Position numbers and translations under genes: made by a program. The notes below the pieces were generated by a model. The model worked only from the letters and a program-made list of their open reading frames with translations. It did not search any database and was not told the origin of the DNA. A DNA stretch of 52,397 nt. Origin: a virus. Taxonomy: Duplodnaviria > Caudoviricetes. Of this stretch, positions 20,306-43,967 are shown piece after piece. Where the stretch lies: positions 1 through 52,397 of IMG/VR virus record IMGVR_UViG_3300034375_000774; one strand, 5' to 3'. How positions within the stretch are numbered: position 1 is the first letter of the stretch; each line of letters starts with the position of its first letter.

Positions 20306-20420
20306 TGATTCGTTTTGCCCTGCCGATGTCCAAAAAAGTGATTCGTTTTGATCTATTTTCGGACCGTCCGAAGATAAACACCCTAAAGGGTGAAAAAAGT
20401 GTTTGACAAAAAACGAATCA
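20306..20420. promoter_or_regulatory. Three TGATTCGTTTT boxes (contain GANTC)
   Basis: Direct copies at 20306 and 20339; inverted copy at 20410-20420. Confidence 0.75.
20354..20376. repeat. 23-bp palindrome, copy 1
   Basis: TATTTTCGGACCGTCCGAAGATA. Confidence 0.9.
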
Positions 20421-20431
20421 CCTGCCAAGTT
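20403..20431 (+). promoter_or_regulatory. First early promoter
   Basis: TTGACA-N17-CAAGTT upstream of the first plus-strand gene. Confidence 0.55.
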
Positions 20432-20482
20432 AAATGCATCGAAACGGCGACAATCGCCACACAGCAAAAAAGGAAATTCGAT

Positions 20483-21034
20483 ATGACAAACGCAAAAACA
20501 CAAAACGCAGTAGCAAAAGCACACGTCGACATGACAGTGACACATGACGGTCAGACATTCACAGTTGCAGAAACATGTGAACACATCAGCCACCTATTCG
20601 ATCAGCGTGATGACACCGCAGAACTTGTTCTGTTCCAGACCCGTGATATTGGCTTATGGTTGCTTCAGCTTCGCTCAATCTATCCATCCAATAAGCAATT
20701 CGGTGCCGCTATCGCCGCCACACCCCTAAGCAAGCGCTCAGCACAGGACCGCAATGATGCAATGTTTGTCGCTGAAAACTGGGACAAAGTAGCGAAGCTA
20801 AACAAAGGCGGCGAACTCAATTCCCTTGGTGCTTCTGCGGTCCGTAAGCGTGTCAAAAAAGCGCAATCTGCAGGTAACACATCCAAAGGCAAGCGAGCGG
20901 ATAAGCCTGCAGAGGCAGAGGCAGCACCCATCACAGCGGATAGCCTAGCGAAAGCAACGCTCAAGCTGCTAGCGGATAACGACATCACCCTTGCCGATTT
21001 CCGCAAGGCATTGACCAAAGCGTCAAAAGCGTAA
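20483..21034 (+). CDS. First early protein, DUF3102-like putative DNA-binding protein
   Basis: AAGGAA RBS then ATG 20483; IGLWLLQLR..YPSNKQFG....LSKRSAQ...AMFVAENW pattern; basic C-terminus. Confidence 0.6.
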   Translation: MTNAKTQNAVAKAHVDMTVTHDGQTFTVAETCEHISHLFDQRDDTAELVLFQTRDIGLWLLQLRSIYPSNKQFGAAIAATPLSKRSAQDRNDAMFVAENWDKVAKLNKGGELNSLGASAVRKRVKKAQSAGNTSKGKRADKPAEAEAAPITADSLAKATLKLLADNDITLADFRKALTKASKA

Positions 21035-21045
21035 TAACATCACAC

Positions 21046-21065
21046 AGCCCGCTTAACGGCGGGCT
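21046..21065 (+). terminator. Stem-loop after the first early gene
   Basis: AGCCCGC-TTAACG-GCGGGCT; poor U tract. Confidence 0.55.
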
Positions 21066-21099
21066 TCACTCTCACTCACAAACACAAGGACACACACCT

Positions 21100-21276
21100 A
21101 TGAGAGAACTTTTGAAAGCATTGTCATATATCGGCGTTAGTGATTATTACAACGTAGTTGATCTGATCATTCAGGAGCAGCACGAACAAGGCACACACGA
21201 TTATGACGCTGCCCTAGCAGAAGCGGTTAAGCGCATTAATGCAGACCCGCATAGGTACATAGAGGACTATGCATAA
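21100..21276 (+). CDS. 58-aa early protein (not in the ORF track)
   Basis: AAGGA RBS; MRELLKALSYIG...RYIEDYA. Confidence 0.7.
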   Translation: MRELLKALSYIGVSDYYNVVDLIIQEQHEQGTHDYDAALAEAVKRINADPHRYIEDYA

Positions 21277-21285
21277 ACATCACAC

Positions 21286-21313
21286 AGCCACCCTTCGGGG
21301 TGGTTTTTCTTTT
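21286..21313 (+). terminator. Rho-independent terminator
   Basis: AGCCACCC-TTCG-GGGTGGTT followed by TTTCTTTT. Confidence 0.9.
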
Positions 21314-21318
21314 CCCTC

Positions 21319-21341
21319 TATCTTCGGACCGTCCGAGGATA
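21319..21341. repeat. 23-bp palindrome, copy 2
   Basis: TATCTTCGGACCGTCCGAGGATA. Confidence 0.9.
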
Positions 21342-21350
21342 ACAACACAC

Positions 21351-21383
21351 AGTAAGCTTGCTTACGAGTAAGCGAAGCGAACA
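21351..21383 (+). repeat. 33-bp repeat, copy B
   Basis: AGTAAGCTTGCTTACGAGTAAGCGAAGCGAACA. Confidence 0.9.
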
Positions 21384-21400
21384 CATTGGAGATTTTTGAT

Positions 21401-21523
21401 ATGACTAGCAAACAACGCAAAGCGCAGCAGCGCACACACACCCTTATGATCCTACTCAACATGCTATGCTTGGGACTATTCGGCTTTGTGCTAGGCTATG
21501 CTGTGGGATCTGGGCTGCTGTGA
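21401..21523 (+). CDS. 40-aa single-TM early protein (not in the ORF track)
   Basis: GGAG RBS; MTSKQRKAQQRTHTLMILLNMLCLGLFGFVLGYAVGSGLL. Confidence 0.7.
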   Translation: MTSKQRKAQQRTHTLMILLNMLCLGLFGFVLGYAVGSGLL

Positions 21524-21603
21524 TATGGGACGGCGCAAGTTCCCACTACGCAAGCGTATACTGATGCGACCTATGAAGTTTCGTTGGCCTCATTATGGTG
21601 GGG

Positions 21604-21632
21604 TTGACAAACATTTTATGGGGTGTCATTCT
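21604..21632 (+). promoter_or_regulatory. Sigma70-like early promoter
   Basis: TTGACA-N17-CATTCT. Confidence 0.5.
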
Positions 21633-21657
21633 TATATACATACGAGATCGAAACCGC

Positions 21658-21680
21658 TATCTTCGGACAGTCCGATGACA
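21658..21680. repeat. 23-bp palindrome, copy 3
   Basis: TATCTTCGGACAGTCCGATGACA. Confidence 0.85.
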
Positions 21681-21708
21681 GCACAACCCACAAACAGGAG
21701 AAAATGAT

Positions 21709-22152
21709 ATGGGTGAATATGTAATCTTTGCAATCGACAATGACGATAACGTACATACTAACGCTAAGTTCTTACGCTATGTAGATGAGCGTGAAGTGAT
21801 GGGTAAAACCAAAGGCAAGATGAAGTTGTGCATCGGTTCATACAAGGGCAAGCTTGAACGCTCATACATAATGAGATGGGATGACTTTATGGAACACATC
21901 GCTGAGTCTGGATATGTAGACAATCAAGAGTCTGTACTGATCCTGCGTGATGGGTACTATGGCAAGGTGTACGCTACGCTCAAGTTCAACAACGATGAAA
22001 GCAAGTTCCCAAATGTAGGACATAATGACCTATTCTTGGGTGTGTTCAGATCCATCCCTGCACATGAGGCACAGTATGAGGAGGCGTGGACCTATCGTCC
22101 AGACCTGGATACATACTATGTATGTGAAGAGATCACAGAGGAGGTGGCTTAG
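21709..22152 (+). CDS. Early hypothetical protein
   Basis: AGGAG RBS; GSYKGKLERSY and AWTY motifs, loosely recalling the T3 SAM-lyase-like fold (weak). Confidence 0.7.
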   Translation: MGEYVIFAIDNDDNVHTNAKFLRYVDEREVMGKTKGKMKLCIGSYKGKLERSYIMRWDDFMEHIAESGYVDNQESVLILRDGYYGKVYATLKFNNDESKFPNVGHNDLFLGVFRSIPAHEAQYEEAWTYRPDLDTYYVCEEITEEVA

Positions 22153-22166
22153 GCCATCTCTTTCTT
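22141..22166 (+). terminator. Probable terminator abutting palindrome copy 4
   Basis: GAGGTGGC-TTAG-GCCATCTC followed by TTTCTT. Confidence 0.6.
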
Positions 22167-22183
22167 CGGACCGTCCGTAAATA
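22161..22183. repeat. 23-bp palindrome, copy 4
   Basis: TTTCTTCGGACCGTCCGTAAATA. Confidence 0.85.
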
Positions 22184-22197
22184 GAGGAGTTGACACT

Positions 22198-22356
22198 ATG
22201 GACAAGATTAAACTACAAGGTGGTATGCATTGGTCTGACGATGAGATCGTGCATTACTTCGACACACATTGGGGTGTCACTATTCGTAAGCTGAGCGCTA
22301 TGTCTGGACGCTCAGTAGGTTACGTCAAAGCTTTGCTAATGGGGGAGCAACACTAA
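22198..22356 (+). CDS. 52-aa helix-turn-helix protein (not in the ORF track)
   Basis: GAGGAG RBS; MDKIKLQGGMHWSDDEIVHYFDTHWGVTIRKLSAMSGRSVGYVKALLMGEQH. Confidence 0.7.
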   Translation: MDKIKLQGGMHWSDDEIVHYFDTHWGVTIRKLSAMSGRSVGYVKALLMGEQH

Positions 22357-22514
22357 TGAAAACAGTAACATTGACAGACTTTACTAACCGAGAGTTTGAT
22401 TTCTTAGCAGAAATGATCCACGAAAAGTTAACTGATATGGGATACGAAACAGATGGCAGCTTTTCTTTTGATCTTGTAGTCTCATTTACACCTGAAGAGG
22501 AGAACTCACAATGA
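22356..22514 (+). CDS. 52-aa acidic protein (not in the ORF track)
   Basis: TAATG coupling; MKTVTLTDFTNREFDFLAEMI...TPEEENSQ. Confidence 0.65.
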   Translation: MKTVTLTDFTNREFDFLAEMIHEKLTDMGYETDGSFSFDLVVSFTPEEENSQ

Positions 22515-22777
22515 AACGTCACGCTAAATCTGCATACACTAAACTCAAGAACATAGGTGTGCCTATGTATATCCACGAAGGTGAGAGCTATCACTTCCTC
22601 ATCAGCGCAGAGGAGAACTACGATACAGTATGGGCTGACTATTGGGCTATGTCTGATGGATCGTATGGTGATCTGGATGACTTCGGTGTAAACAAAAAGA
22701 TCCAAGCTATTCTAGATGACTATGGTCTATTCTCTGAATGGCAGAACCCTGGTGCGTTAGGAGTGTATGACCAATGA
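22511..22777 (+). CDS. Early hypothetical protein
   Basis: GAGGAG RBS; ATGA overlaps at both ends. Confidence 0.75.
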   Translation: MKRHAKSAYTKLKNIGVPMYIHEGESYHFLISAEENYDTVWADYWAMSDGSYGDLDDFGVNKKIQAILDDYGLFSEWQNPGALGVYDQ

Positions 22778-22998
22778 AACACTATGACATAATAGGTAAT
22801 CTATGTGCGTTTGAATCAGGAGACTTAGACGAAAAAGAAACGCTTGACTTGTTTCAGGAGCTAGTGAATACTGGTATGGCTTGGACCTTACAGGGAAGCT
22901 ATGGACGTACAGCTAAGATTTTCATTGATGAGGGTTTAATCTCGGATGGTCCGAAGGTAGAGGAGAACAACAATGCGTATACGAATAGGAGTATGTAA
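22774..22998 (+). CDS. Early hypothetical protein
   Basis: LFQELVNTGMAWTLQGSYGRTA conserved phage motif. Confidence 0.75.
   Translation: MKHYDIIGNLCAFESGDLDEKETLDLFQELVNTGMAWTLQGSYGRTAKIFIDEGLISDGPKVEENNNAYTNRSM
22937..22959. repeat. 23-bp palindrome, copy 5 (intragenic)
   Basis: TAATCTCGGATGGTCCGAAGGTA. Confidence 0.7.
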
Positions 22999-23000
22999 AG

Positions 23001-23150
23001 ATGACTGAGCAAGAAAAGCTAGAACTTGTAAGAGAAAGCCTGCAGTATGTACGAGAGTGCATCAAGCAGACGATAAAAACAAATGACGTATCACATCTGA
23101 GTGGTACGCTTCTTGTCCTTGGCCTACTGGATGGCACAGAAAAAGTATAA
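23001..23150 (+). CDS. 49-aa protein (not in the ORF track)
   Basis: AGGAG RBS; MTEQEKLELVRESLQY... Confidence 0.6.
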   Translation: MTEQEKLELVRESLQYVRECIKQTIKTNDVSHLSGTLLVLGLLDGTEKV

Positions 23151-23172
23151 CGATACGAGAGGAGACTTCACA

Positions 23173-23787
23173 ATGTATCAACGTGACTGCAACACTATTG
23201 CTCAATACGCTATGGCATCAGCCGATGGATTGTATGACGTGATAGAGTTCACCCTATGCACAATCAACATGCCACTCTCACGTGTCATACAGCAGCGTGT
23301 ATCTATTAAAGCGGAGGGCATCCACAGCAAGTGGGTGTCCCGTACTAAGGCGCAAGGCATAGAGTATGCCAAGGCTAACGCCCAGCGCTTGCACAAAGAG
23401 ATCAACGCCATCGCTCAGCAGTATGGCACAGACACTATTGATGGCGCTCAAGAGGCTGTGGATCTGTTTGTGTCTATTCCGTCTATCGGTATGGTCAAGG
23501 CAGGTTTCATTGCACAGATGTGCGGCTTCGAGGTGGCTTGTCTGGATCGCCACAACATTCGTATGCTCGGACGGTCCGAAGATAGCTTGCTGCTTAACAA
23601 GAAGGTCAAGCCTGAGCTACGCCGCCGCAAGATACGTGACTACGTTAAGCTGTGTAGACGCAAGGGTGCTGAGTACTGGTGGAACACCTGGTGTAACTAC
23701 GTAGCTGACAAGGGCGGTATGAATAAGTCCTTGCCAACTGGTGATGCTGTGTCTAAGTATCACGTCACTGCAATTATGGAGATGTAA
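23173..23787 (+). CDS. HhH-GPD superfamily DNA glycosylase-like protein
   Basis: AGGAG RBS then ATG 23173; HhH SIPSIGMVKAGF followed by VACLDRHNIR. Confidence 0.7.
   Translation: MYQRDCNTIAQYAMASADGLYDVIEFTLCTINMPLSRVIQQRVSIKAEGIHSKWVSRTKAQGIEYAKANAQRLHKEINAIAQQYGTDTIDGAQEAVDLFVSIPSIGMVKAGFIAQMCGFEVACLDRHNIRMLGRSEDSLLLNKKVKPELRRRKIRDYVKLCRRKGAEYWWNTWCNYVADKGGMNKSLPTGDAVSKYHVTAIMEM
23562..23584. repeat. 23-bp palindrome, copy 6 (intragenic)
   Basis: TATGCTCGGACGGTCCGAAGATA. Confidence 0.88.
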
Positions 23788-23789
23788 TA

Positions 23790-24005
23790 ATGCTAGATCA
23801 AAACTTCATAAGAGTAGAACACAAAGGGCAAACTGTGTCTATTGTACAGCACAAGTACAAAGACAGAATAGAGTGTCAAGAGGTTGCAATAGTACCACAA
23901 TCAGGGGCGCAAGCTATTGAGACAATTATTCATTACAGTGGCAGCTTGGATAGTCTTATAGGTACCTTGCAATTAATCAAAGAGGAAATAGAAAATAGAT
24001 GCTGA
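23790..24005 (+). CDS. Early hypothetical protein
   Basis: GGAG RBS; 71 aa. Confidence 0.65.
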   Translation: MLDQNFIRVEHKGQTVSIVQHKYKDRIECQEVAIVPQSGAQAIETIIHYSGSLDSLIGTLQLIKEEIENRC

Positions 24006-24041
24006 GTTCAACTACACTTATGAGTACAAGGAGATGAACCA

Positions 24042-24389
24042 ATGAGTAACGATGTAGCATACAAGATGATGAACGATGTGATTACACACACTGAGTGTGT
24101 AGTGGCTGTGTATGTAGATGATGAGATAGACTACGTAGGCCGTGACATAGATAAGATATGGGATGCAGCTACTGCGTGTGACGAGGTAGAGATAGGTCTA
24201 TTGAGAGAAGTAGAAGTAGTTGAACACATCTACGAAAGTGAGCCTGTAGACTGGGCATACCTAGTGCACGGTAACGCACCTGATGAGACTATCAGTGACT
24301 GCTTGCACGGCAAGTGGATTGACAACTGGTGTAACGTTACCGACTTTGGTAGCAAGCCTTATGTAATGGAGTTAGAACAATGCCCTTAA
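24042..24389 (+). CDS. Acidic early hypothetical protein
   Basis: AAGGAG RBS; 115 aa. Confidence 0.75.
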   Translation: MSNDVAYKMMNDVITHTECVVAVYVDDEIDYVGRDIDKIWDAATACDEVEIGLLREVEVVEHIYESEPVDWAYLVHGNAPDETISDCLHGKWIDNWCNVTDFGSKPYVMELEQCP

Positions 24390-24637
24390 TATGTAGAGCA
24401 ACACGAACAGAACTAGTAGCTGAGATTGCAGGTGCAGTGCTAGAGAATATGTACTACGCTAATGTGACTGCACCAGAGGACTTGTACTTTCACGATAAGG
24501 TGCACGACTGTATGATGTATACAGATGATGCACAGGATAGATTCAATACGCTGTTCGATATAGTCGAGGAGACTATCGGTAGCTACTTACTTAATGAGGA
24601 GATGAGTGATGTACACTGTGACAATTCTGTGGGGTGA
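24380..24637 (+). CDS. Acidic early hypothetical protein
   Basis: GGAG RBS; YTDDAQDRFN motif. Confidence 0.7.
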   Translation: MPLICRATRTELVAEIAGAVLENMYYANVTAPEDLYFHDKVHDCMMYTDDAQDRFNTLFDIVEETIGSYLLNEEMSDVHCDNSVG

Positions 24638-24773
24638 GTACCCTGAAGATTCAGCAACAACAGCTGAGACATATGAGTTCAGCACTAATGCTGAGCGTGA
24701 GGCATTCCTGTGGGGTGTCGAGGAGATGCACGGATGGTTAGGCTATCAGATATTGGAGCAAGTCGATGAGTAA
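24609..24773 (+). CDS. 54-aa protein (not in the ORF track)
   Basis: GAGGAG RBS; MYTVTILWGE...YEFSTNAEREAFLWGVEEMHGW. Confidence 0.7.
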   Translation: MYTVTILWGEYPEDSATTAETYEFSTNAEREAFLWGVEEMHGWLGYQILEQVDE

Positions 24774-25050
24774 ATACTACAAGATTCACCTGAGCATTAC
24801 AGAGTTGGTAGCACTAGAAGCTATACTGAAAGCCGCTGACTCTTGGGTATTGAAAGATCTTACTGATGAGGTTATAGCTTTTATTGAGGAGCAAGACTTG
24901 AGCTTTCCGCTAGGTAAACGTAGTAGATTTATTATGGAGTACGAATGTCCATGTGGTGAGGTGTGGTTTATGCAGCATGACTGTGCTTGCAATGATCGCT
25001 GCCCATCGTGTAACAAAGAGAATGAACCAGTAAGCGTGGAGGATGTGTGA
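24766..25050 (+). CDS. Zn-ribbon-containing protein
   Basis: YECPCGEVW...CACNDRCPSC. Confidence 0.7.
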   Translation: MSKYYKIHLSITELVALEAILKAADSWVLKDLTDEVIAFIEEQDLSFPLGKRSRFIMEYECPCGEVWFMQHDCACNDRCPSCNKENEPVSVEDV

Positions 25051-25199
25051 TGAAATATAAAGTAGCAGTGGTTTTATATGAACGGGTTGAGGCTGACAGT
25101 GAGGAGCAAGCTAAGCAGAAGTTTAAGGATGACTTTGAATTTCAAGACTTAAACTATGCGGAGTATAACATTGAGGAGATCTATGATGCCCAGAGTTAG
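25050..25199 (+). CDS. 49-aa acidic protein (not in the ORF track)
   Basis: GGAGG RBS, TGATG coupling; VEADSEEQA motif. Confidence 0.65.
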   Translation: MKYKVAVVLYERVEADSEEQAKQKFKDDFEFQDLNYAEYNIEEIYDAQS

Positions 25200-25380
25200 A
25201 TCGACAGCACAGATGATTAGCTTCTTGGATTGGGAGGGTTATGTACCTGATGACATTCCAGAGGACGAATGGTGGCGTTGGATCAAGGACAACGTTGACG
25301 GTGGAGAGTTCAACGACAGCGGTGTAGGTGATTGGATATGGGAAACAGACGTGGAGGTATTGGACGATGAAACGAGTTGA
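25183..25380 (+). CDS. Acidic Trp-rich protein
   Basis: GAGGAG RBS before ATG 25183/25186. Confidence 0.65.
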   Translation: MMPRVRSTAQMISFLDWEGYVPDDIPEDEWWRWIKDNVDGGEFNDSGVGDWIWETDVEVLDDETS

Positions 25381-25774
25381 GGTATACTTTAATCTGCACA
25401 AGAAGCTATTCAGTGTGCGTGACTGTAAGACAGGGCGTGTGATCGACCACACTAATCATGTGGCTATCGCTAACCCACAGTTCGTAGTACGTAAGGCAGG
25501 ACGTGAGCGTGTACTGCGTGAGCGTAAGAAGAATGTGCATGCATTTGTGCGTGGTTACATCTTGCCTGAGGATGACGAGGCTTGTGCTCGTAACTACTTC
25601 CACACTGTGTGGCACGGCAAAGAGGTGACGTATAACCCATACAAGTACAGCAGCTTTGTAGTTAAGGACACAGAAGAACCTATTGACAAAGCTACAGTGG
25701 CTGTGCTAACAGGTGGTGGTGACCAGAAGGTTAAGACAAAGGTAATGCTAGGAGCAGGGTATGAATATATATAA
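25367..25774 (+). CDS. Conserved phage protein
   Basis: GGAGG RBS; VYFNLHK, RERVLRERKKNVHAFVRG and YNPYK motifs. Confidence 0.8.
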   Translation: MKRVEVYFNLHKKLFSVRDCKTGRVIDHTNHVAIANPQFVVRKAGRERVLRERKKNVHAFVRGYILPEDDEACARNYFHTVWHGKEVTYNPYKYSSFVVKDTEEPIDKATVAVLTGGGDQKVKTKVMLGAGYEYI

Positions 25775-25786
25775 GGAGACACAACA

Positions 25787-26089
25787 ATGACTATAGCTAC
25801 ACTAGACGAGACAGACGAGGATACACGCTACCTGTGCGAAGTGATAGACGACAGCAAGTATTTGATTACGGCATGCAAGACTGAGCAGTCAGGCATACGT
25901 ATGCTTGCATTGCTTGAGACACTATTCAACTTTGCTTGGTTCGATCTATCTTCGGACCGTCCGAAGTTAAGACTTGATGAGTATGACTACGACAGGTTCC
26001 TTGAGTACAGACATGAACTCATACGTCCTGTACCTAACGTGCAACGCAAACCAAAACTTATTGTCATAGACGGAGGGCTTGACAAATGA
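25787..26089 (+). CDS. Hypothetical protein
   Basis: AAGGAG RBS; ends KPKLIVIDGG. Confidence 0.7.
   Translation: MTIATLDETDEDTRYLCEVIDDSKYLITACKTEQSGIRMLALLETLFNFAWFDLSSDRPKLRLDEYDYDRFLEYRHELIRPVPNVQRKPKLIVIDGGLDK
25947..25969. repeat. 23-bp palindrome, copy 7 (intragenic)
   Basis: TATCTTCGGACCGTCCGAAGTTA. Confidence 0.9.
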
Positions 26090-26107
26090 TTACTAAACAA
26101 CTAAACC
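26079..26107 (+). promoter_or_regulatory. Sigma70-like promoter
   Basis: TTGACA-N17-TAAACC. Confidence 0.5.
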
Positions 26108-26219
26108 TGAAGATACTTACTATGTGTGAGAAGATCTTGCCTGACACTCGTATGGCAAACAACAAAGAACTAAAGAACTTACTATCAGAAATTCGTACAG
26201 CACTAGAGGAGACAAAATA

Positions 26220-26444
26220 ATGTTTGTATGTTTCGCAACTAAATCACTTAACGATGGCACACGTGGCTTCCGCTTCAACTTCGCAGGCATCAAGGGCTTG
26301 ACCCGCAAGCGCCAGTCTATCAAACGCTTTGGCGTAACACGTGGTGCTTGTATGACTGCATACCACATCGGTAAGCGCAGCGTGTACATCGAACAGTCTG
26401 GCAACAAGCGTGGCTCACGTAAGGTGCGTCACTTTGCAGGCTAA
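26220..26444 (+). CDS. Small basic protein
   Basis: GAGGAG RBS; apparently has its own promoter and terminator. Confidence 0.75.
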   Translation: MFVCFATKSLNDGTRGFRFNFAGIKGLTRKRQSIKRFGVTRGACMTAYHIGKRSVYIEQSGNKRGSRKVRHFAG

Positions 26445-27820: not shown

Positions 27821-28743
27821 AACGTAAACAGCTAGACCTCAAGGGTACTAACAAGCTGCGTGATGCAGTGGACGCTTACCTACACAGCCCTTCCTTTGCT
27901 GAGCTAACTGGTCCGACACAGAAACAGTACGAGACCCGACTAGCTGTAGTGTGTGACACAACAGTGCAGAAGGGTAAGATGTTAGGCAACATCAAGCTAC
28001 GTGACATCAGTGTCAAGCATGTGACCTACGCTTACGACACATGGGTAAATCAGAGAGGTCCACGTGCAGCTAACTACAACGCTTCGTGCCTGAGCATAGT
28101 ACTTAACCTGGCTCGTCGGCACGAGGCTCTCTTGTACAACCCTGTGTCCCTACTCAAACGTAAGACTGATAAGCCACGCAGTGTGAAGTGGACGACTGAT
28201 GATGTGCGTTTGTTCTTAGACACAGCGTACATACAATGGAAGTATCGTAGCATTGGTCTTATCGTGCACATGTCATACGAGTGGGGCCAACGTATAGGTG
28301 ACATGCGCCTACTTAAATGGGATGCTATAGACTTCGACCAAGAACGTGTAGACATTACACAGTCTAAGCGTGGGGCTGAGGTACACCTGCCTATTGACGA
28401 TGGGCTACTTGTTATGCTCAAGAAACAGAAGGAGGACTTCGGGTTTCAACCTTACGTAGCACCACACGTCAAACCTAAGAGTGGCAGCTACAACCCATAC
28501 TCTGAGACAGACATACATCACTACGTCAATCGTGTTAAGGATGAGGCAGGACTAGATCCTGACTTACAAGCACGTGACCTACGCCGCACAGCTATCACTG
28601 AGATGGTAGAGGCAGGCGTTGATCTTGTAGGCATCATGCAGGTGAGTGGACACCAGAACCCTGCCAGTGTTAAGCCTTACCTAGTCAACACACTCAGCGG
28701 TGCATCAGCTGCACTAGCTAAACGCAAAGGAATTACTGAATGA
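27814..28743 (+). CDS. Tyrosine integrase/recombinase
   Basis: GQRIGD (R), QSKR (K), RDLRRT (HxxR variant), SGH and PY (Y); GAGGAG RBS. Confidence 0.9.
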   Translation: MVKRKQLDLKGTNKLRDAVDAYLHSPSFAELTGPTQKQYETRLAVVCDTTVQKGKMLGNIKLRDISVKHVTYAYDTWVNQRGPRAANYNASCLSIVLNLARRHEALLYNPVSLLKRKTDKPRSVKWTTDDVRLFLDTAYIQWKYRSIGLIVHMSYEWGQRIGDMRLLKWDAIDFDQERVDITQSKRGAEVHLPIDDGLLVMLKKQKEDFGFQPYVAPHVKPKSGSYNPYSETDIHHYVNRVKDEAGLDPDLQARDLRRTAITEMVEAGVDLVGIMQVSGHQNPASVKPYLVNTLSGASAALAKRKGITE

Positions 28744-29531
28744 ATATCAGAGGCTTCCTAGATACACTTAACTTAAAGGATGGAGATTCGCTACGCACGA
28801 ACTGTCCTAGCTGCAAGTCACGTAACACATTCACTTGCTATAAGGATGGTGGTGACTACGTGTACAACTGCTTCAAGCTTAGCTGTTCACTCAAGGGTGC
28901 ATACGCTACAGACATGACAGTCGAAGAGCTTAAGCTTCGTATGGCTAAGCCTAGAAACACTAATGAAAACAAAGAGTTACAGCCCTTAGTTTATCCAGAA
29001 TATGTAGTGCAACCTACGTCTGATCACGTTCTGTTACATAAGTTCATTGATCAGTATGACTTACACAACGAGGGCTTGATGTATGACGTGAAGGACAGAC
29101 GTGCTGTGTTCCCTATACATTACAACGGTAGGCTACTGGATGCTGTGGGCCGTGCACTTGATGGTGCTATACCTAAATGGTATCGCTACTCAGGCCAGGC
29201 TGACTTCTTTACTAAGCGAGTGAACCCTGATGCAGATGTAGCTGTGGTAGTTGAGGATGTGATAAGTGCGATAAAAGTGTCACACTTTGTACCCAGCGCA
29301 GTAGGGTTTGCCATACTAGGTACATCACTTAATGTTACAATAATGAAACACTTAGGTGAGTTTCGTGAGGTAGTCATAGCGTTAGACAGGGATGCCACAC
29401 ACAAGACCTTGCAATACAAACGAGAGGTAGAGCTATGGACGGGCCTACCTACAAGAGCATTACTACTTGACGACGACATCAAGTATGGTGTACAAGATGA
29501 TATAATGAGACTTAAGGAGATGATACATTGA
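28740..29531 (+). CDS. DNA primase
   Basis: CPSC...NCF Zn finger; TOPRIM VVVED and ALDRD. Confidence 0.88.
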   Translation: MNIRGFLDTLNLKDGDSLRTNCPSCKSRNTFTCYKDGGDYVYNCFKLSCSLKGAYATDMTVEELKLRMAKPRNTNENKELQPLVYPEYVVQPTSDHVLLHKFIDQYDLHNEGLMYDVKDRRAVFPIHYNGRLLDAVGRALDGAIPKWYRYSGQADFFTKRVNPDADVAVVVEDVISAIKVSHFVPSAVGFAILGTSLNVTIMKHLGEFREVVIALDRDATHKTLQYKREVELWTGLPTRALLLDDDIKYGVQDDIMRLKEMIH

Positions 29532-30196
29532 TAGATGTAACTTACATTAACCACATGGGTGATGACTTATCTGTAGTTAATGCTGCACGTGTGTCGTTTG
29601 GTAAGAAGAGCGAACTTGTGGAAGGCACAGTAAAACAGGACGAACAAGGTGATTACCTTGAGATGGTTCTGTCTGATCGTGACACCAAGCTGATCCGTTA
29701 CCTAGCCAAACACAAACACATTAGCCCATTCGGTCATGCCTTTGCGTCCTTCCACGTCAAGGCTCCGATATTCGTCGCACGTCAGCTAGTGAAGCACAAG
29801 TTCCTACGTTGGAACGAGATAAGCAGACGCTATGTGGATGAAGACCCTGAGTTTTACTTTCCTCTTACGTGGAGAGGACGAAGTGCTGACAAGAAACAAG
29901 GTAGCGAGGGTGAGGTAAAGAGCAACTTCAACATCAACTATCACACTATGGCAGCATTGAAAGGATACCAACAAATGTTAGATGAAGGTGTAGCACCAGA
30001 GCAAGCACGTATGGTATTGCCACAGTCGATGATGACTGAGTGGTACTGGTCAGGTAGCTTGGATGCATTCGCTGACATGTGCAACCTACGCTGTAAGCCT
30101 GACACACAAGCAGAGACACGTGAGGTAGCAGATAAGATTAGTGCAGAGATGGCTAAGCTGTTTCCTGTATCGTGGGAGGCGTTATCAAATGAGTGA
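29528..30196 (+). CDS. thyX: FAD-dependent thymidylate synthase
   Basis: AARVS, HISPF, RQLVKHK...NEISRRY, EQARMVLP and TQAE motifs. Confidence 0.93.
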   Translation: MIDVTYINHMGDDLSVVNAARVSFGKKSELVEGTVKQDEQGDYLEMVLSDRDTKLIRYLAKHKHISPFGHAFASFHVKAPIFVARQLVKHKFLRWNEISRRYVDEDPEFYFPLTWRGRSADKKQGSEGEVKSNFNINYHTMAALKGYQQMLDEGVAPEQARMVLPQSMMTEWYWSGSLDAFADMCNLRCKPDTQAETREVADKISAEMAKLFPVSWEALSNE

Positions 30197-30425
30197 TGAC
30201 ATAGGAAAGATTGGTGTCGAAACTGTAGAGGAACACGAGGATGGTAGTGCAACTTATCAGTTTCACATGGATGCACATGCTCGTGGGTTACTGGCAGAGG
30301 AAGGGCTGAAGCTAGTACTCTACTGTGCCGCTGCTGGTTTAGACATACAGGTAGTGTATGACTTTATCCAAGATCATATTGAATATGAGAAAGAGGAATA
30401 CAAGTTTGGAGACTTAAATGAGTAA
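30189..30425 (+). CDS. Hypothetical protein
   Basis: GGGAGG RBS; EHEDGSAT motif. Confidence 0.7.
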   Translation: MSDDIGKIGVETVEEHEDGSATYQFHMDAHARGLLAEEGLKLVLYCAAAGLDIQVVYDFIQDHIEYEKEEYKFGDLNE

Positions 30426-32004: not shown

Positions 32005-32018
32005 AGAGGAGAGCTAGA

Positions 32019-34067
32019 GTGAGGACAGTACTAGACGTAGAGAACAACTCTCTTGTACGAGAGGGTAAAAAGATAATGGACCCTTGGGAGCCAAGCAACC
32101 ATCTTGTGCAGGTAGGTACAATTAACGTGGATAACCCTGATGAGATGCACTTGCTTACGTTTGATCACCAAGAGAAGAAGGACACGACAGGAGGTGCTGC
32201 GTTCGTACTGCAAGCTGTACTGGACGAGACAACCTTGTTGATACTACACAACGCACGTCACGATATGCCGTGGCTATGGGAGTCAGGCTTCCGCTATGAT
32301 GGGCCAATCTATGACACAATGATCGGTGAGTATCTGCTACTGCGTGGCGTGAAGCGTAACATCAGCTTAGCTCACTGTGCAGAAGAGCGTCAGCTACCTT
32401 CACGTAAACTAGACGTACTCAAGGAGTACTACAAGAAAGGCTACAACACAGATGAGATACCACTGGCTGAACTACTAGAGTATCTTATTGGTGACTTATA
32501 CGTCACACGTGAGTTGTTCCTAGCACAAGAGCACGACTTCTCTCAGCCAGAGAGCCAATCAATGATACGTGTACGTGACATCAGCATGAAGGTGTGCATG
32601 ACATTGTGTCGCATGTATCAGCGTGGGTTCAAGGTAGACCGTGATGCACTTGAGGAAGTTCGTGTTGAGTTTGAGCAGGAGAAAGCAGAGCTAGAGACAC
32701 GCATCAACACAAAGGTACGTGAGCTTATGGGTGACACACCTATCAACATGTCATCACCAGAGCAGAAGTCTCAAGTTATCTACAGCATGAAGCCTAACGA
32801 TAAGAAGGAGTGGGCTGAGCTATTCGAGTATGTCAATACGGCTGACGAGTATCGCTCTACTGTCAACGCTAACACACAGCGTGTGATGAAGACTAAGGCT
32901 TACACATGCCCTACATGTAATGGCACAGGTAACACGTACAAGATCAAGAAAGATGGTACACGTTACGCTAAGCCTAACAAGTGCAAGGACTGTGAAGCAC
33001 GTGGCTACAAACTAGAAGAGACTAACCAAGTAGCAGGGCTTAAGTTCTTCCCGCCTAACAAAGAATGGGTCAGCGATGCAGGCTTCACTACATCTAAGTC
33101 TAACTTGGATCTGCTTATCGCTACAGCTAGATCAAAAGGTATGGATGAGGCTGAAGCATTCTTGTCTGACATTCGTAGGTTAAACGCTATCAAGAGCTAC
33201 TTGAATAACTTTGTGGGTGGTATCGACTTGTTCACTAAGCCTGATGGTTTCTTACATGTGGATCTATCACAGACTACTGCAGCTACAGGCCGCTTTAGTG
33301 GGCGTAACCCTAACATGCAGAACATGCCACGAGGTAACACATTCCCTATCAAGAAAGTATTTGTGTCACGCTTCGATGGTGGCTACGTAATGGAGGCAGA
33401 CTTTGCACAACTTGAGTTCCGCACGGCTGCGTTCCTTGCACAGGACAAGACAGCAATGGAAGAGATCGCTACAGGGTTCGACGTACACAGCTACACCGCC
33501 AAGGTTATCACTGATGCTGGTCAGCCAACGACACGCCAGGAAGCTAAGGAACACACCTTCGCACCCCTCTTTGGCGCAACTGGTTTCGGAAGACCCAAAG
33601 CTGTGGCTGCGTACTACGAACACTTCACACAGAAGTACACAGGTGTAGCCAAGTGGCACAAGAAGTTAGCCAAGGAAGCAGTCAACCTACTAAAGATTAC
33701 TAACGTAAGTGGTAGGCAGTATGCATTCCCTGACTGCCACCGCAGAGAGAATGGTAGCGTGAGTCACATGACTAACATCAAGAACTATCCAGTGCAGGGG
33801 TTTGCTACTGGCGATGTTGTACCTGTTGTATTGATGGAGATTGAGGAGAGGTTGAAGCCTTTGAAGTCTTGCCTAGTCAATACCGTACATGACTCAGCTG
33901 TTATAGATATTCACCCAGACGAGAAGGAGTATGTAATTGCAATGATAAATACACTCAACGATGATCTCAATCGTATCATCGAAGAAGCCTACGGAGTAGA
34001 GATGAATGTGCCTCTGTTATTAGAAGCAAAGATTGGTCCGAATTGGCTTGACACTAAGGACGTTTAG
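32019..34067 (+). CDS. DNA polymerase family A with DnaJ-type Zn-finger insertion
   Basis: Exo DVE, HNARHD; CPTCNGTG...CKDCEARG; TGRFS, ADFAQLE, RQEAKEHTFAPLFG, NYPVQG and VHDS. Confidence 0.95.
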   Translation: MRTVLDVENNSLVREGKKIMDPWEPSNHLVQVGTINVDNPDEMHLLTFDHQEKKDTTGGAAFVLQAVLDETTLLILHNARHDMPWLWESGFRYDGPIYDTMIGEYLLLRGVKRNISLAHCAEERQLPSRKLDVLKEYYKKGYNTDEIPLAELLEYLIGDLYVTRELFLAQEHDFSQPESQSMIRVRDISMKVCMTLCRMYQRGFKVDRDALEEVRVEFEQEKAELETRINTKVRELMGDTPINMSSPEQKSQVIYSMKPNDKKEWAELFEYVNTADEYRSTVNANTQRVMKTKAYTCPTCNGTGNTYKIKKDGTRYAKPNKCKDCEARGYKLEETNQVAGLKFFPPNKEWVSDAGFTTSKSNLDLLIATARSKGMDEAEAFLSDIRRLNAIKSYLNNFVGGIDLFTKPDGFLHVDLSQTTAATGRFSGRNPNMQNMPRGNTFPIKKVFVSRFDGGYVMEADFAQLEFRTAAFLAQDKTAMEEIATGFDVHSYTAKVITDAGQPTTRQEAKEHTFAPLFGATGFGRPKAVAAYYEHFTQKYTGVAKWHKKLAKEAVNLLKITNVSGRQYAFPDCHRRENGSVSHMTNIKNYPVQGFATGDVVPVVLMEIEERLKPLKSCLVNTVHDSAVIDIHPDEKEYVIAMINTLNDDLNRIIEEAYGVEMNVPLLLEAKIGPNWLDTKDV

Positions 34068-40147: not shown

Positions 40148-40150
40148 GTG

Positions 40151-40179: not shown

Positions 40180-40210
40180 ACACGCACATGCCAAACAACG
40201 GAGTAGTTAT

Positions 40211-40420: not shown

Positions 40421-40428
40421 AACTAGAA

Positions 40429-40456
40429 AGGGGGGCTTAGTTGCCCCCCTCTTTTT
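40429..40456. terminator. Terminator between the convergent arms (likely bidirectional)
   Basis: AGGGGGGC-TTAGTT-GCCCCCCT followed by CTTTTT. Confidence 0.85.
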
Positions 40457-40457
40457 A

Positions 40458-43400
40458 TTATCTCAAACCTAATAGTTTCTGTTGTTTCTTTTCAACCTCT
40501 TTGTCTAGCTCTATGTAGCCGACAAGGAGTTGTATCTGTTCCGTGTCTAGCTTCGACGGATCTTGATCAAAGCCCATATCTTTTAAGTACTGAGCTAGGT
40601 CTTTCTTATTAACGAAGCTACCTTCCCCTAACTTAAATAATAATGATGTACGTGTATCCTCAGGGTTAAACGAGTTCTCAAGTAAAGAGCGTATCTCTTT
40701 TTTAGCCTCACTGATTACACGAGAGATCATATCCTTCTTACCGCTTGCAGAGGCAGACTTCCAAGCATATGTGTCAAGTAGCTCAGCTGCTTTGTAGTTA
40801 AGGATAGGCGTAATCATACTGTTGACATCGTTGAGTGGTTCTGCAATAGATGAACGAATATTAGTACGCCACTGTGCTAGGCCAGCTTGGTTAAACATTT
40901 CTTGTATAGGACTCTGTGCTAGCTCTTCACGGAAACCAAAGATACGCCCAATAGGAAGACGATCCTTGCTTGATGTGAGCGCACGTTCTTTCTGCTCAGG
41001 CTTAGTGTACAGCTGCATAGCGCTTAGTAGCTCATCAGTGTAACGTACAGAGTTGTTCAACCACTCACTACCTTGACGACGATCAGGTGACACATACTCG
41101 TCACCCTTCATTAGTGAAGCTGTGATGTTCACTGGATCAAGTGGACGAGAGTAGCCTGACAAATACATAGCTGCAGACTTTTGTACAACCTCAGTAAGGA
41201 CACGCTTAGTTTCAATGTCATCAGATGTAGCAATGTCGATAAGCATGTCGTATGAAGCTTGGATACTATCGCCTAGCTGACGTGTAAGTTGTTGTGGTCC
41301 AAACGTAGCCGCTACCTCTTCAATAGTCGCACGAGGTATCTCACCATCACGTACAACGTAAGCAGCCATACGACCAATAGCTTTGTAGAAGCTGTAAGGG
41401 AAGTCATATTGTCTGTTACGTATAGTACCATCTGAACTGCGCTCTTGGAAGATGCCAAGCCCTTCCTCTAAGTAGTCCTTCTCATACGTATAAGCTGCGC
41501 CAATAAAGCTTAGACCTACAGCAGACTTAGTTAGCAGTTCCATAGGGTCACGTGTAGTACCAGCCAGATACTTATGCACTAAGCTGATGCCTGTGTGGTC
41601 CATCATGTGGCCTAGTGTGTTATTAAAGAACTGTCCAAACGGAACCATCGCACCAACCACAGGGTACTTACGAATATCCTCGACAATCTTAGCAGCAAAC
41701 TGTAGTGTACCCTTTGTGCCACCATAAGGCTTAGCGAACACAGCACGTAAAGCATCATCAGCTGACTCACTAACAATCTGTGCGTACTTGTCACCCTGCA
41801 TATTCTTCCACAAGTTAGGGTCACGAATAAACTCAGAGTAAGTTACACCATATTCAGCACGAATACGTTTATCTACAGAGTACATGAACTCTTGTGTCTT
41901 AGTGAGCATGTCTTGTGCTTTAACGCCGTAGATAGTTTGCAGTCCATCCATAGCTTTACTGAATAGACCCTCATTCTGAGATAGCTTCTCAGCGTCAGTA
42001 ACGCCAATCTCTTTAGCCATCTTACCAAAGTCTTGGAAGCCAATGTCTTTAGCTACTTCTTCTAGCTCAATACCACCAGACAAGTAGCGGAACATCTTCT
42101 TCTGTGCTTCAGGGTTATACGCAGCAAAGTCCATAAATGCTTCGTATGTCATGTGTGTGTCCAGAAGGTTACGCATCTTCTGTTTCTGCAACGTGAACAT
42201 CAACCCTGCACGTTTAGCATACTTAGCTGCACCTTCTTTGTTGAACATAGCAGTCTGTAAGATAGCGTTACCACCATACAAAGTGCCACGTACAATGTCA
42301 GACATACTTTGCATAGAGCTAGCAGTCTGCCAACCAATCAAGTTGAGCGCTGTAGTACCAGGGTGTGTAACAAGCATACGAATAAGGTTACGCTGCAAGA
42401 AGCTAGTCTTAGCTGCAAAAGCCTCACGCACTCGTGTAGACACAGGCGGTAGTTCTGCCTTGAGTAGTTCAGGTAGTACCTCATCATCAGCTACCTTAGG
42501 TATGTAACGCAATGTACGTGCAGCTTGTGACAAGATGTTAAGCTGTTGACCTGCTACGCTGAACTCTTTAGCATCCATATCTAAGGCTTGCAGTAGAGAC
42601 TTACCTTTGTAGTCAGGCACAGCTTTACCTAAGGTGTTACGGAAGACATCATCTAACTGATCTTGTACATTCTGAGGCATCTCACGAATAAGATCATGCA
42701 TCCAGTTAGAGAAGTTGTCATCGTCTGTACGCTTAGTCCAGTTACGTACACCATTCTCAGCTAAGATATCAGCAACACCCTTGAAGCCTAGCTTCTCGTC
42801 ACCCAAGTAGAAAGCTTTACGTATTTGTGTTTCTTTAGATACACGCTGTCCGTTGCCTAACAAACGCAGTAATCCACCACGTTCTACTTTATCAGCAAAG
42901 TCTTCCATATTCTTCTTAAAGTCAGGTAGACTATCTTGGAAGCCACGTAAGTCTAGCTTCTCCTTAACTGACTTAGTTACATCCCCAGCTATCTCACGAG
43001 CACGAGCTAGGTCTGTGTTAGCTCTATCAAAGTAGAACGCAGCTAGCATATCTGAGTCAGCATCAAAGCTACGTCCTAACATAGACAAGCCCATAGATAA
43101 GCCTGTACCAAACGCACCACCGACTGCAGCCACAGAGCCTTGTACTAAGTCGTACTCACTCTGTAGTCCTACCTCTTGCATAGCTTGCTGATACACAGCA
43201 TCCATAGACACACCAGCTACAGTGTCAGTCGCACCTGTGTACAGCGCTTCCTTTACAGCCAGACCTTTAGAGGCTTTCTTAAACGCTTCACTACGTAAGG
43301 TCTCACCTATAAGCTTACGCTCTACTTGCTTGGCTGCTTGCTTAGCGCTTTGAGTCAAGCCTTGCTTCTGAATAATCTTAGCTACTTCACGCTTAACACC

Positions 43401-43967
43401 TTCTTTGGCTAGCTGTGCTGCAGCCTTAGAGCCGCCGCCTGTAATAAGCTTACCTACACCAAGAGATACAACGTTAACTGGATCAACAATAAGCGCTCTA
43501 CCGTAGTCGTACACAGCGTCCAGCTTCTCCATGCCAGACGTACCCTCAGCAAAGGCACCCTTCATAGAGTCAAACGTCTGGTAAGCTGCAGCAGCCTCAG
43601 CTTTCTGTGCTTCTGTGGCACCATTAAGATATGATAGTTCACCTACAGTAACGACAGACTGACCAAAGTTAAACTTACGCATGTGGTTAACGTAGGCATC
43701 AGCTATCTCTTGACGATCAAACTTATCCTCAGTCATACCAAACTTAGACTTCATGTAAGGCGCATACTTTTGGAACACGTCATCACGAGTAAGGTCACGC
43801 ACACCTTCAGGGTCTAAGTAGGAATCTACTTGTTGTTCTACTTTCGGACGGTCCGAAGATACGTCTTCAGCAGTACCAAGAAAGGCATCTAAAGGGCTTA
43901 CTGTCTTTTGTTTTTCTTCTTTCTCAGGTGTAATAGGATCACCCAAGAACATATCTAAGTTAGCCAT
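40458..43967 (-). CDS. Large internal virion (ejection) protein
   Basis: 1169 aa, helical, last gene of the core-protein cluster; DPVN motif. Confidence 0.65.
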   Translation of the reverse strand: MANLDMFLGDPITPEKEEKQKTVSPLDAFLGTAEDVSSDRPKVEQQVDSYLDPEGVRDLTRDDVFQKYAPYMKSKFGMTEDKFDRQEIADAYVNHMRKFNFGQSVVTVGELSYLNGATEAQKAEAAAAYQTFDSMKGAFAEGTSGMEKLDAVYDYGRALIVDPVNVVSLGVGKLITGGGSKAAAQLAKEGVKREVAKIIQKQGLTQSAKQAAKQVERKLIGETLRSEAFKKASKGLAVKEALYTGATDTVAGVSMDAVYQQAMQEVGLQSEYDLVQGSVAAVGGAFGTGLSMGLSMLGRSFDADSDMLAAFYFDRANTDLARAREIAGDVTKSVKEKLDLRGFQDSLPDFKKNMEDFADKVERGGLLRLLGNGQRVSKETQIRKAFYLGDEKLGFKGVADILAENGVRNWTKRTDDDNFSNWMHDLIREMPQNVQDQLDDVFRNTLGKAVPDYKGKSLLQALDMDAKEFSVAGQQLNILSQAARTLRYIPKVADDEVLPELLKAELPPVSTRVREAFAAKTSFLQRNLIRMLVTHPGTTALNLIGWQTASSMQSMSDIVRGTLYGGNAILQTAMFNKEGAAKYAKRAGLMFTLQKQKMRNLLDTHMTYEAFMDFAAYNPEAQKKMFRYLSGGIELEEVAKDIGFQDFGKMAKEIGVTDAEKLSQNEGLFSKAMDGLQTIYGVKAQDMLTKTQEFMYSVDKRIRAEYGVTYSEFIRDPNLWKNMQGDKYAQIVSESADDALRAVFAKPYGGTKGTLQFAAKIVEDIRKYPVVGAMVPFGQFFNNTLGHMMDHTGISLVHKYLAGTTRDPMELLTKSAVGLSFIGAAYTYEKDYLEEGLGIFQERSSDGTIRNRQYDFPYSFYKAIGRMAAYVVRDGEIPRATIEEVAATFGPQQLTRQLGDSIQASYDMLIDIATSDDIETKRVLTEVVQKSAAMYLSGYSRPLDPVNITASLMKGDEYVSPDRRQGSEWLNNSVRYTDELLSAMQLYTKPEQKERALTSSKDRLPIGRIFGFREELAQSPIQEMFNQAGLAQWRTNIRSSIAEPLNDVNSMITPILNYKAAELLDTYAWKSASASGKKDMISRVISEAKKEIRSLLENSFNPEDTRTSLLFKLGEGSFVNKKDLAQYLKDMGFDQDPSKLDTEQIQLLVGYIELDKEVEKKQQKLLGLR
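43839..43861. repeat. 23-bp palindrome, copy 8 (intragenic, isolated)
   Basis: TACTTTCGGACGGTCCGAAGATA. Confidence 0.88.

Follow-up and report, generated by a model that had tools for sequence, protein, structure and literature searches.

A dispersed palindrome in the early arm of HMO-2011-type phages and a candidate dimeric regulator encoded by their first early gene

The IMG/VR virus record IMGVR_UViG_3300034375_000774 is a linear genome of 52,397 bases, 95% complete, and was analysed in its entirety (hereafter, the window). Here we describe eight copies of a short palindrome in this genome, together with gp1, the first early gene, which lies between the first two of them. The DNA polymerase of the window shares 64–67% identity with its counterparts in three Roseobacter phages (CRP-603, CRP-2 and CRP-207) and 56% with the enzyme of Puniceispirillum phage HMO-2011, and the gene order of the window is that of the CRP phage and HMO-2011 records. 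Based on these identities and this gene order, we assign the genome to an uncultured HMO-2011-type podovirus. Phages of this type are dominant and broadly distributed in the ocean, according to passages of PMC9038755. The sequencing runs containing the window genome are labelled as freshwater and estuary metagenomes. The early and replication arm lies on the plus strand, between about 20.4 and 40.4 kb, and the structural arm on the minus strand, and neither tRNAs nor Rfam families were found across the window.

Searching the window for the core TCGGACNGTCCGA with at most one mismatch gave eight matches, where 0.01 are expected by chance and none of 100 shuffles reached eight. The cores start at 20359, 21324, 21663, 22166, 22942, 23567, 25952 and 43844, and are perfect in six copies and have one mismatch in two, which bears out the count made in an earlier sequence-only reading of this DNA. 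The 23-mer proposed in that reading recovered seven of the eight copies at up to three mismatches (expected 0.00); the copy at 22937 has five mismatches to it, counted by hand. Seven copies fall within 20354–25969, the first 5.6 kb of the early arm, as had been stated, and the eighth lies in a late gene. Four of the early copies are wholly intergenic, in a block of which only 9.7% is intergenic, and those at 22937, 23562 and 25947 are wholly within open reading frames (ORFs). Together with the copy at 43839, in an ORF of 1169 amino acids, this makes four copies inside coding sequence.

The copies, to which no strand is assigned, are arranged as follows. Copy 1 (TATTTTCGGACCGTCCGAAGATA, 20354..20376) is intergenic, 106 nucleotides (nt) before the start of gp1, and its centre is 38 bp before a TTGACA hexamer (20403–20408). 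Between the two is a conserved hairpin (CACCCTAAAGGGTG, 20379..20392, minus strand) that resembles a minus-strand terminator and is kept through compensatory changes in other classes of related phages, described below (ACCCTTTAGGGT, ACTCTAAAGAGT). Next comes gp1 itself (20483..21034, plus strand; 183 amino acids), a candidate dimeric DNA-binding protein. An intrinsic-terminator-like hairpin (21286..21305, plus strand) directly precedes copy 2 (TATCTTCGGACCGTCCGAGGATA, 21319..21341), which is intergenic and 61 nt before the next start. Copy 3 (TATCTTCGGACAGTCCGATGACA, 21658..21680), also intergenic, is downstream of a TTGACA at 21605 and an AT-rich TATATA, and 28 nt before ORF 21709–22152. The intercistronic copy 4 (TTTCTTCGGACCGTCCGTAAATA, 22161..22183) directly precedes the GAGGAG ribosome-binding site of the ORF at 22198. 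Copy 5 (TAATCTCGGATGGTCCGAAGGTA, 22937..22959), the most degenerate of the eight, occupies the last codons of a DUF7417 ORF, again directly before a GAGGAG ribosome-binding site. Copy 6 (TATGCTCGGACGGTCCGAAGATA, 23562..23584) lies within an ORF of 204 amino acids (23173–23787). Copy 7 (TATCTTCGGACCGTCCGAAGTTA, 25947..25969) encodes SSDRPK within p100 (25787..26089, plus strand), an acidic protein of 100 amino acids with a conserved C-terminal KLIVIDGG tail. Copy 8 (TACTTTCGGACGGTCCGAAGATA, 43839..43861) spans codons 36–43 of the 1169-amino-acid late ORF (40458–43967, minus strand). Two copies had been said to follow terminators directly; this holds only for the copy at 21319, whereas the one at 20354 abuts the minus-strand hairpin. 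Likewise, of the promoters proposed near copies, the TTGACA hexamers at 20403 and 21605 are present, but neither passes a two-hexamer promoter test.

The motif is a symmetric 11-1-11 palindrome, TA-NYY-TCGGAC-N-GTCCGA-RRN-TA. Each half-site is itself bipartite, with TA and TCGGAC separated by three free bases. These features were read from 38 unique sites (76 half-sites) of class A, the first of five classes of site introduced below; positions 7–10 (CGGA) were fixed by the search pattern and provide no evidence of conservation. Position 1 is T in all 76 half-sites, position 2 is A in 69, position 6 is T in 69 and position 11 is C in 67, and positions 3–5 are free (N, Y, Y). Across the 38 sites, complementarity is lacking in 93 of 418 symmetric position pairs, and just 16 double changes preserve it. 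Single-strand hairpin energies range from −3.3 to −6.5 kcal/mol, with z scores of −0.3 to −3.6. A symmetric, sequence-specific and bipartite half-site without compensation between the arms points to duplex DNA recognised by a dimeric protein rather than to a hairpin. The sites therefore suit a dimeric protein, as the sequence-only reading supposed.

To place the palindromes in related phages, IMG/VR was scanned with a 15-mer, which yielded 109 stretches; 24 of these, including those in multi-copy contigs, are homologous to the window. Relatives G001–G004, which are 82–98% identical in the early arm, contain 6, 8, 7 and 3 copies, and the more distant G009 (70–79% identity) contains five. The relatives thus share the motif at similar spacing. 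Copy 2 is a conserved island, as the segments on either side of it have no homology to G002. The late-gene copy 8 is kept in three lineages (the window, G002/G004 and G012/G013), where TCT TCG GAC CGT CCG is identical at all synonymous positions; the surrounding DNA is about 69–74% identical overall, and the immediate flanks cannot be aligned. Classes A, A' and E, but not class D, have copy 7 at identical codons, and its GAC/GAT CGT CCG is kept across lineages in which the protein is just 55–58% identical. A look at synonymous variation had been suggested as a check of the intragenic copies, and at copies 7 and 8 the synonymous positions are kept. Copy 6 occurs only in the window and G002, where LGL[ASP]ETA is replaced by LGRSEDS without an indel. 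In G009, L142, L145 and L220, a copy lies directly upstream of the copy-6 gene rather than inside it. As copy 6 arose without a change in length, insertion of a mobile element was rejected, and its history is one of turnover under a constant requirement, not of hitch-hiking or of a mobile-element scar. With synonymous positions of intragenic copies kept and copy 6 gained at an amino-acid cost, these alignments show selection acting on the palindromes at the DNA level, in line with the earlier claim.

We next determined how the palindromes are distributed relative to gp1. A locus scan with the gp1 alignment identified 36 viral loci at 29–85% identity, comprising 400,269 bases. The core CGGA-N3-TCCG was found in 33 of these loci and at least twice in 30. 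The three single-copy loci end at most 450 bases from the gene start, and the three loci without a core are partial matches covering residues 50–127. In total, there were 168 core hits, versus 15 and 0 for two control patterns. With one exception, the hits either start about 120–190 bp before the gp1 gene or follow it, and each of the 33 core-bearing loci has a counterpart of copy 1 at 120–190 bp upstream. gp1 is flanked by a pair of sites in 30 of the 36 loci, and genomes contain eight copies in the window and 5–11 in relatives. Representatives of classes A and D show the order site, hairpin, TTGACA, gp1, hairpin/terminator, site, with 38–41 bp from site centre to TTGACA in the five loci measured by eye. 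In complete or nearly complete class D genomes, all seven or eight sites are located within about 4.5–5.4 kb at the start of the early arm. One of these, G015, has eight sites in its first 5.4 kb, upstream of the integrase, all intergenic and mostly 0–35 nt before a start.

A control set was assembled through a neighbouring gene, which encodes a very basic protein of 74 amino acids (26220–26444 in the window). This gave 80 loci, 44 of which had at least 5 kb of upstream sequence. Of 15 loci with gp1, 14 had two or more sites and one had fewer, while all 29 loci without gp1 had fewer than two sites and none had two or more (Fisher p = 1.3 × 10−10 for 44 loci whose lineages are not independent).

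The palindrome also differs by gp1 clade, and we distinguished five specificity classes among the gp1 loci: class A, TATCTTCGGAC-N-GTCCGAAGATA; class B, ATCTGTCGGAY-N-RTCCGACAGAT; class C, TASTGACGGAY-N-RTCCGTCASTA; class D, TAATCWCGGAA-N-TTCCGWGAATR; and class E, TACTGTCGGAC-N-GTCCGACAGTA. Counted together with the everted arrangement in HMO-2011 described below, at least six motifs were found. In the gp1 alignment, all classes whose core is CGGAC have S-x-Q-D-[RY]-[NST]-D in helix 87–98, and the two divergent class D subfamilies, whose core is CGGAA, have [AS]-D-[KR]-Y there. Residues of this putative recognition helix change along with the core base. The RsrII site CGGWCCG occurs seven times in the window, six of them inside palindromes. 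This overlap is limited to classes with a C/G centre and is absent from the class D and HMO-2011 motifs, so a restriction-site reading was rejected and the overlap is incidental, as had been suspected.

A further observation concerns short hairpins (6-bp stem, 3–5 nt loop) at these loci. The first 1.5 kb of G015 (L170) contains 49 of them, compared to about one per 500 bases elsewhere. Such hairpins also crowd the opening 1.5 kb of the early arm, gp1 coding sequence included, in class B, class D, L210 and HMO-2011 (L170, 1–1500; L156, 6500–8000; L152, 6000–8000; L210, 2500–3500; HMO-2011, about 53,500–55,000). The gp1 coding sequence in those phages holds 14–26 hairpins, versus about 0.4 in shuffles, and the window and classes A and E have 0–1.

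Structure predictions were then made for gp1. The AlphaFold2 model (predicted local distance difference test, pLDDT, 77.5) is all-helical apart from a beta hairpin. The beta hairpin comes first, followed by a long helical hairpin and a domain of five helices; a disordered basic linker, which contains an invariant AGNTSKGK, then leads to a C-terminal helical pair. Prediction of the homodimer resulted in a score of 0.72, versus 0.00 for the best of three controls; the mark applied is reached by 20 of 30 proteins solved as one-chain pairs and by one of 23 solved as single chains. Dimer runs agreed in at least 81% of contacts, with a partner pLDDT of at least 71. gp1 is thus predicted to be a homodimer, whose modelled interface involves helices 28–66 and the C-terminal pair and leaves helix 87–98 mostly free. 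Exhaustive structure comparison yielded weak matches, over residues 14–136, to the DNA-binding domains of KorB bound to its operator (1r71_A; Z 5.4, root-mean-square deviation (rmsd) 3.1, 88 aligned residues), ParB bound to parS (6s6h_B; Z 5.2, rmsd 3.5, 93 aligned) and Spo0J (1vz0_A; Z 4.7). Foldseek found nothing in the PDB at E ≤ 0.001, and a sequence profile search of the PDB gave four hits, at chance level only. The best BFVD match of the model is an unnamed viral protein of 205 amino acids (E-value of 6 × 10−4). An ESM Atlas lead (rank 30, score 0.93) provided a single link to DUF3102, as 42% of its cluster members carry PF11300; none of 26 gp1 family members hit DUF3102 at E ≤ 10.

Metagenomes yielded 60 close homologues of gp1, and a wider search gave 100 cluster representatives at E ≤ 0.001. 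tBLASTn searches with gp1 of the window, class D and class E against 50,697 phage records gave no match. A gp1 scan over genomes of 185,579 species recovered no prophage and only one contig, of 4,151 bases, from a metagenome-assembled genome (MAG). A role in lysogeny is possible, as an integrase is present, but the lack of a gp1-bearing prophage across these species does not favour it.

The cultured phage HMO-2011 carries its own version of both elements. Its first plus-strand early gene, gp74, encodes 205 amino acids with 28% identity to gp1 over 202 residues (pairwise E-value of 5.5 × 10−4), and this alignment identifies it as a remote homologue of gp1. When gp74 was used as query, HMO-2011 was the sole phage found to contain it. 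Five exact TAGTCCG-ACAG-CGGACTA sites are present in HMO-2011, at 53878, 54807, 60, 1261 and 1926, with no others at zero or one mismatch in its 55,282 bp. The half-sites GTCCG/CGGAC are the 5-mers of the window, but everted. The early arm opens with all five sites inside a stretch of 3.4 kb: gp74 is preceded by one at a distance of 289 bp and followed by another 23 bp past its stop codon, and the others are just 5' of ribosome-binding sites. Neither p100 nor the 74-amino-acid protein has a detectable homologue in HMO-2011. As the array and a gp1 homologue occur here without a detectable p100, gp1 is favoured over p100 as the constant partner of the array. In the first 50 kb of CRP-603, CRP-2 and CRP-207, no copy was found at one mismatch or fewer, and generic cores numbered 0, 0 and 1. 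A literature search turned up no account of such a palindrome system, which agrees with the earlier view that it is undescribed; the original description of HMO-2011 lies outside that search. The words 'promoter' and 'repressor' do not occur in the main text of PMC9038755, and palindromes go unmentioned in its passages.

Considering these results, we judge it somewhat better than an even chance that the palindromes are double-stranded DNA operators for a symmetric phage-encoded dimer, most likely gp1, that shuts off the early genes. The core module of site, promoter region, gp1, hairpin/terminator and site has the layout expected of an autoregulated cassette. Further copies would act from directly 5' of the ribosome-binding sites of small early genes, or from inside genes where there is no spacer. 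As gp1 accumulates, it would occupy the sites and turn off transcription of the early host-takeover block, through promoter occlusion and/or as a stoperator-like roadblock to elongating RNA polymerase. Such a shut-off could serve in lytic development and might also confer immunity against related phages. Of the four proteins that the sequence-only reading listed as possible binders, the one encoded at 20483 emerges as the best candidate, through its co-occurrence and co-variation with the sites.

Several points weigh against this proposal. gp1 has no Pfam, PHROG or NCBIfam family and no recognisable helix-turn-helix (HTH). Its matches to the KorB and ParB folds are tied with unrelated helical chains (Z below 8) and are a lead only. 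A sigma-70 scan of the window found 17 promoters, versus 16.2 expected, with none adjoining any copy. The two class D subfamilies of gp1 share the same site despite strongly different putative recognition helices. The lineages are related, and the counts of co-occurrence therefore overstate their independence. The sole exception among the loci with gp1 in the control set, L210, encodes a gp1-like protein (2721–3338) that is 34% identical to class B and has a single core site, TACTCACGGAAAATCCGTGACTA (3602–3624), right after the gene. The late-gene copy 8 has no role in a gp1 shut-off model. The position of copies just 5' of ribosome-binding sites would also fit an operator at the RNA level. 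In addition, p100, a 44-amino-acid ORF (26086..26220, plus strand) and an L5-gp82-like gene match the phyletic pattern of gp1 in the IMG/VR set, so co-occurrence alone cannot single out gp1. Binding of gp1 to the sites, and repression as its result, are inferred from comparisons of sequences and models.

This last pattern leads to the alternative that survives best, although we consider it unlikely: that the sites are real operators with a binder other than gp1, either p100, the 44-amino-acid ORF product or a recruited host transcription factor. p100 is co-inherited with gp1 and the sites (14 loci with gp1, none without) and diverges between classes about as gp1 does (34–36% identity). A homologue of the 44-amino-acid ORF, searched with the 45-amino-acid ORF of L220, is found in 14 of 15 loci with gp1 and none of 29 without. 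The lack of a recognised DNA-binding domain in gp1 also leaves room for another binder. p100, however, is acidic, has no Pfam family and is modelled as a small alpha/beta fold (pLDDT 76) without a match at Z 5 or above or any pointer to DNA binding, and it is undetectable in HMO-2011 despite the array there. Class E p100 had no tBLASTn match in the 50,697 phage records. It is possible that p100 is a partner or target of gp1. A host factor alone would leave unexplained why none of the 29 closely related gp1-less phages bears the sites, and gp1 is bracketed by two sites in 30 of its 36 loci.

Other early proteins were rejected as binders. The L5-gp82-like gene (13 loci with gp1, none without) is missing from G009, which has sites. 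The HTH_58-like ORF at 22198, a binder proposed earlier, is absent from the motif-bearing G009, L145 and class D, occurs in only five of 15 loci with gp1, and is present in CRP-2, which has no sites. The integrase, likewise proposed, is found in 17 of 29 related phages without gp1 and sites. The suggested ParB-like domain protein was not recovered, as Pfam identified none among the 72 ORFs scanned. gp1 itself has no ParB-type N-terminal domain in Pfam at E ≤ 0.01, and no ParB family was hit by any of the 26 members at E ≤ 10. None of the early ORFs matched a Cro/CI-type family. The basic 74-amino-acid protein is present in all 29 loci without gp1. Neither a family nor an Atlas relative was found for it, and its pattern MFV..ATK...GFR.N..G.KG..RKR......HFAG is invariant, with 53–78% conservation in at least 120 viral loci, whether gp1 is present or not.

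We regard as slightly less likely still an element acting in RNA. This would be a hairpin in a polycistronic early mRNA that either serves as a translational operator, recognised by gp1 or by some other protein, or directs mRNA processing or stability. Most copies are 0–60 nt before a ribosome-binding site or start codon, as seen for copies 2–5 of the window, all eight in G015 and four of five in HMO-2011. The ATG that ends the class D site can serve as a start codon, and a CGGAG variant provides GGAG 9 nt before that ATG. A GC-rich stem with a 3-nt loop can form, with 4 bp (CGGA/TCCG) in all classes and 5 bp (TCGGA/TCCGA) in class A. This stem, however, is invariant and shows no co-variation down to 29% protein identity, deviations in the arms are uncompensated and positions 3–5 are free. 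The consensus is symmetric, whereas an RNA signal has one orientation. Copy 1 is upstream of the first promoter-like hexamer in every lineage and thus probably outside the rightward mRNA, copy 8 is in a gene on the opposite strand, and the in-ORF copies are 205 and 116 nt from any start.

About as unlikely, in our view, are structural or loading sites on first-entering DNA (parS/KorB-like nucleation, pausing or pull-in, nuclease shielding, or N4-like hairpin promoters): copies do cluster in the first 3–6 kb of the early arm (seven or eight in class D, five in HMO-2011, seven of eight in the window), the 13-bp core has a 5-3-5 geometry similar to that of N4 early promoters, gp1 weakly matches KorB/ParB DNA-binding domains and the leading 1.5 kb is hairpin-rich in classes B and D and HMO-2011, but none of the scanned ORFs of the window was recognised as an RNA polymerase or as carrying a ParB N-terminal domain, symmetric flanks speak against a directional promoter, and the tight placement before genes, with turnover between 'upstream of' and 'inside', fits gene-by-gene regulation better than bulk DNA handling.

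The proposed operators of gp1 can be compared to several known systems. Stoperators of cluster A mycobacteriophages (L5 gp71 type) are, as passages of PMC9283540 describe them, many repressor sites spread genome-wide, mostly in short intergenic spaces, that halt transcription elongation besides repressing a promoter, and are asymmetric and read by a monomer. Similarly, one site is dispersed in 5–11 copies per genome here, mostly between early genes. Unlike stoperators, the palindromes of the window are symmetric, gp1 is predicted to be a dimer (0.72 versus 0.00 for the control), and copies are confined to the early block bar one late copy. No sequence or family relation was found between gp1 and the stoperator repressor. 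While the stoperator binder is a prophage immunity repressor, gp1 phages gave no evidence of lysogeny in the 185,579-species scan (the one MAG contig).

A second comparison is with KorB. This member of the ParB family on IncP plasmids is a global repressor with a dimeric helical DNA-binding domain, and its operator OB is an odd-centred 13-bp palindrome present in about a dozen dispersed copies, both near and distant from promoters. The window shares with KorB/ParB systems a short palindrome in several copies, in this case the 13-bp core TCGGAC-N-GTCCGA in eight, and the gp1 model matches their DNA-binding domain weakly, not above background (Z 5.4 and 5.2). Unlike KorB, gp1 has no Pfam-detectable ParB-type N-terminal (CTP-binding) domain and no sequence similarity, and the site is longer (23 bp, bipartite half-sites) and found in a phage, not a plasmid. 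Cro of phage lambda is a small dimeric product of a first early gene that binds palindromic operators and lowers early transcription. gp1 is likewise a small first-early-gene protein, predicted to dimerise and accompanied by palindromic sites. Lambda, however, has six sites at two promoters, whereas the sites in the window also occur between and inside downstream genes. The fold family differs too, and no CI-like partner was found. Finally, the early hairpin promoters of phage N4, also a podovirus, are short inverted repeats with 3-nt loops in the DNA that enters the cell first, and the palindromes resemble them in repeat form, loop and location at the start of the early arm. Each N4 promoter has a direction and depends on a giant RNA polymerase carried in the virion, in contrast to the symmetric flanks and the lack of a recognised polymerase here. 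The closest described logic is that of stoperators and KorB/OB, although symmetric sites, the missing ParB N-terminal domain and the lack of a sequence relation place the system in neither family.

These results give HMO-2011-type phages a testable early-gene regulatory element and a candidate regulator, a pair that has diversified into several specificity classes. They also add an unannotated family (the 100 cluster representatives) to the likely DNA-binding regulators. As the cultured type phage carries its own version, a bench test is possible with an existing phage–host pair. More tentatively, and with considerable doubt, gp1 and its array may be an unrecognised master switch of HMO-2011-type phages and the founder of a new family of dimeric regulators, with the classes, which would be diverging rapidly, acting as immunity or incompatibility groups among phages that occur together and p100 as a cognate antagonist or target. 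If true, gp1 would be the master switch of one of the most abundant marine phage groups.

Some further observations were made around the palindromes and in the relatives. G015 and the window have portal, terminase, capsid, RNR and ThyX proteins in common at 58–78% identity, and integrase genes are also common to G015 (L170–L172) and the window. No tBLASTn match to the primase, helicase and DNA polymerase of the window (28740–34067) was found in G015 (L170–L172), which indicates an exchanged replication module. The ends of G015 overlap by 127 bases, possibly as a result of assembly.

Upstream of gp1, in the region 20200–20345, GCATCA(C) is repeated about eight times (20205–20295). GATTCGTTTT is a direct repeat present twice (20307 and 20341), and its complement follows the TTGACA at 20403 (20403–20425), so copy 1 lies within a larger inverted repeat. 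The repeats around copy 1 could be an origin, packaging or end-related sequence. Just after copy 3, ORF 21709–22152 (147 amino acids) has a sub-threshold match to S-adenosylmethionine lyase (PF23780; E-value of 5.8 × 10−5, 23.5 bits with a cut-off of 28), making it a possible anti-restriction early gene.

Two RNA-library runs provided contigs only. In run X20, contigs of relatives reach 27 of 30 bins of the early region. One such contig tracks the window to the middle of copy 4 (22177), continues with 26 other letters and rejoins at 22510. Copy 2, with its flanks that have no homology to G002, is a similar case, and the palindromes may delimit modules that recombine.

The window also contains another family of palindromes, TAGTT-N-AACTA (TAGTTTAACTA), unrelated to the first, with copies at 18795, 18917, 18979 and also 50872. 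Its repeats cluster in the leftward arm, in 440 bp of AT-rich DNA between genes (18749–19190). Like arrays (TAGTT-N1 or ATAGT-N3) are found at the matching place in relatives, gp1-less phages included, and may represent late promoters or the sites of a second regulator.

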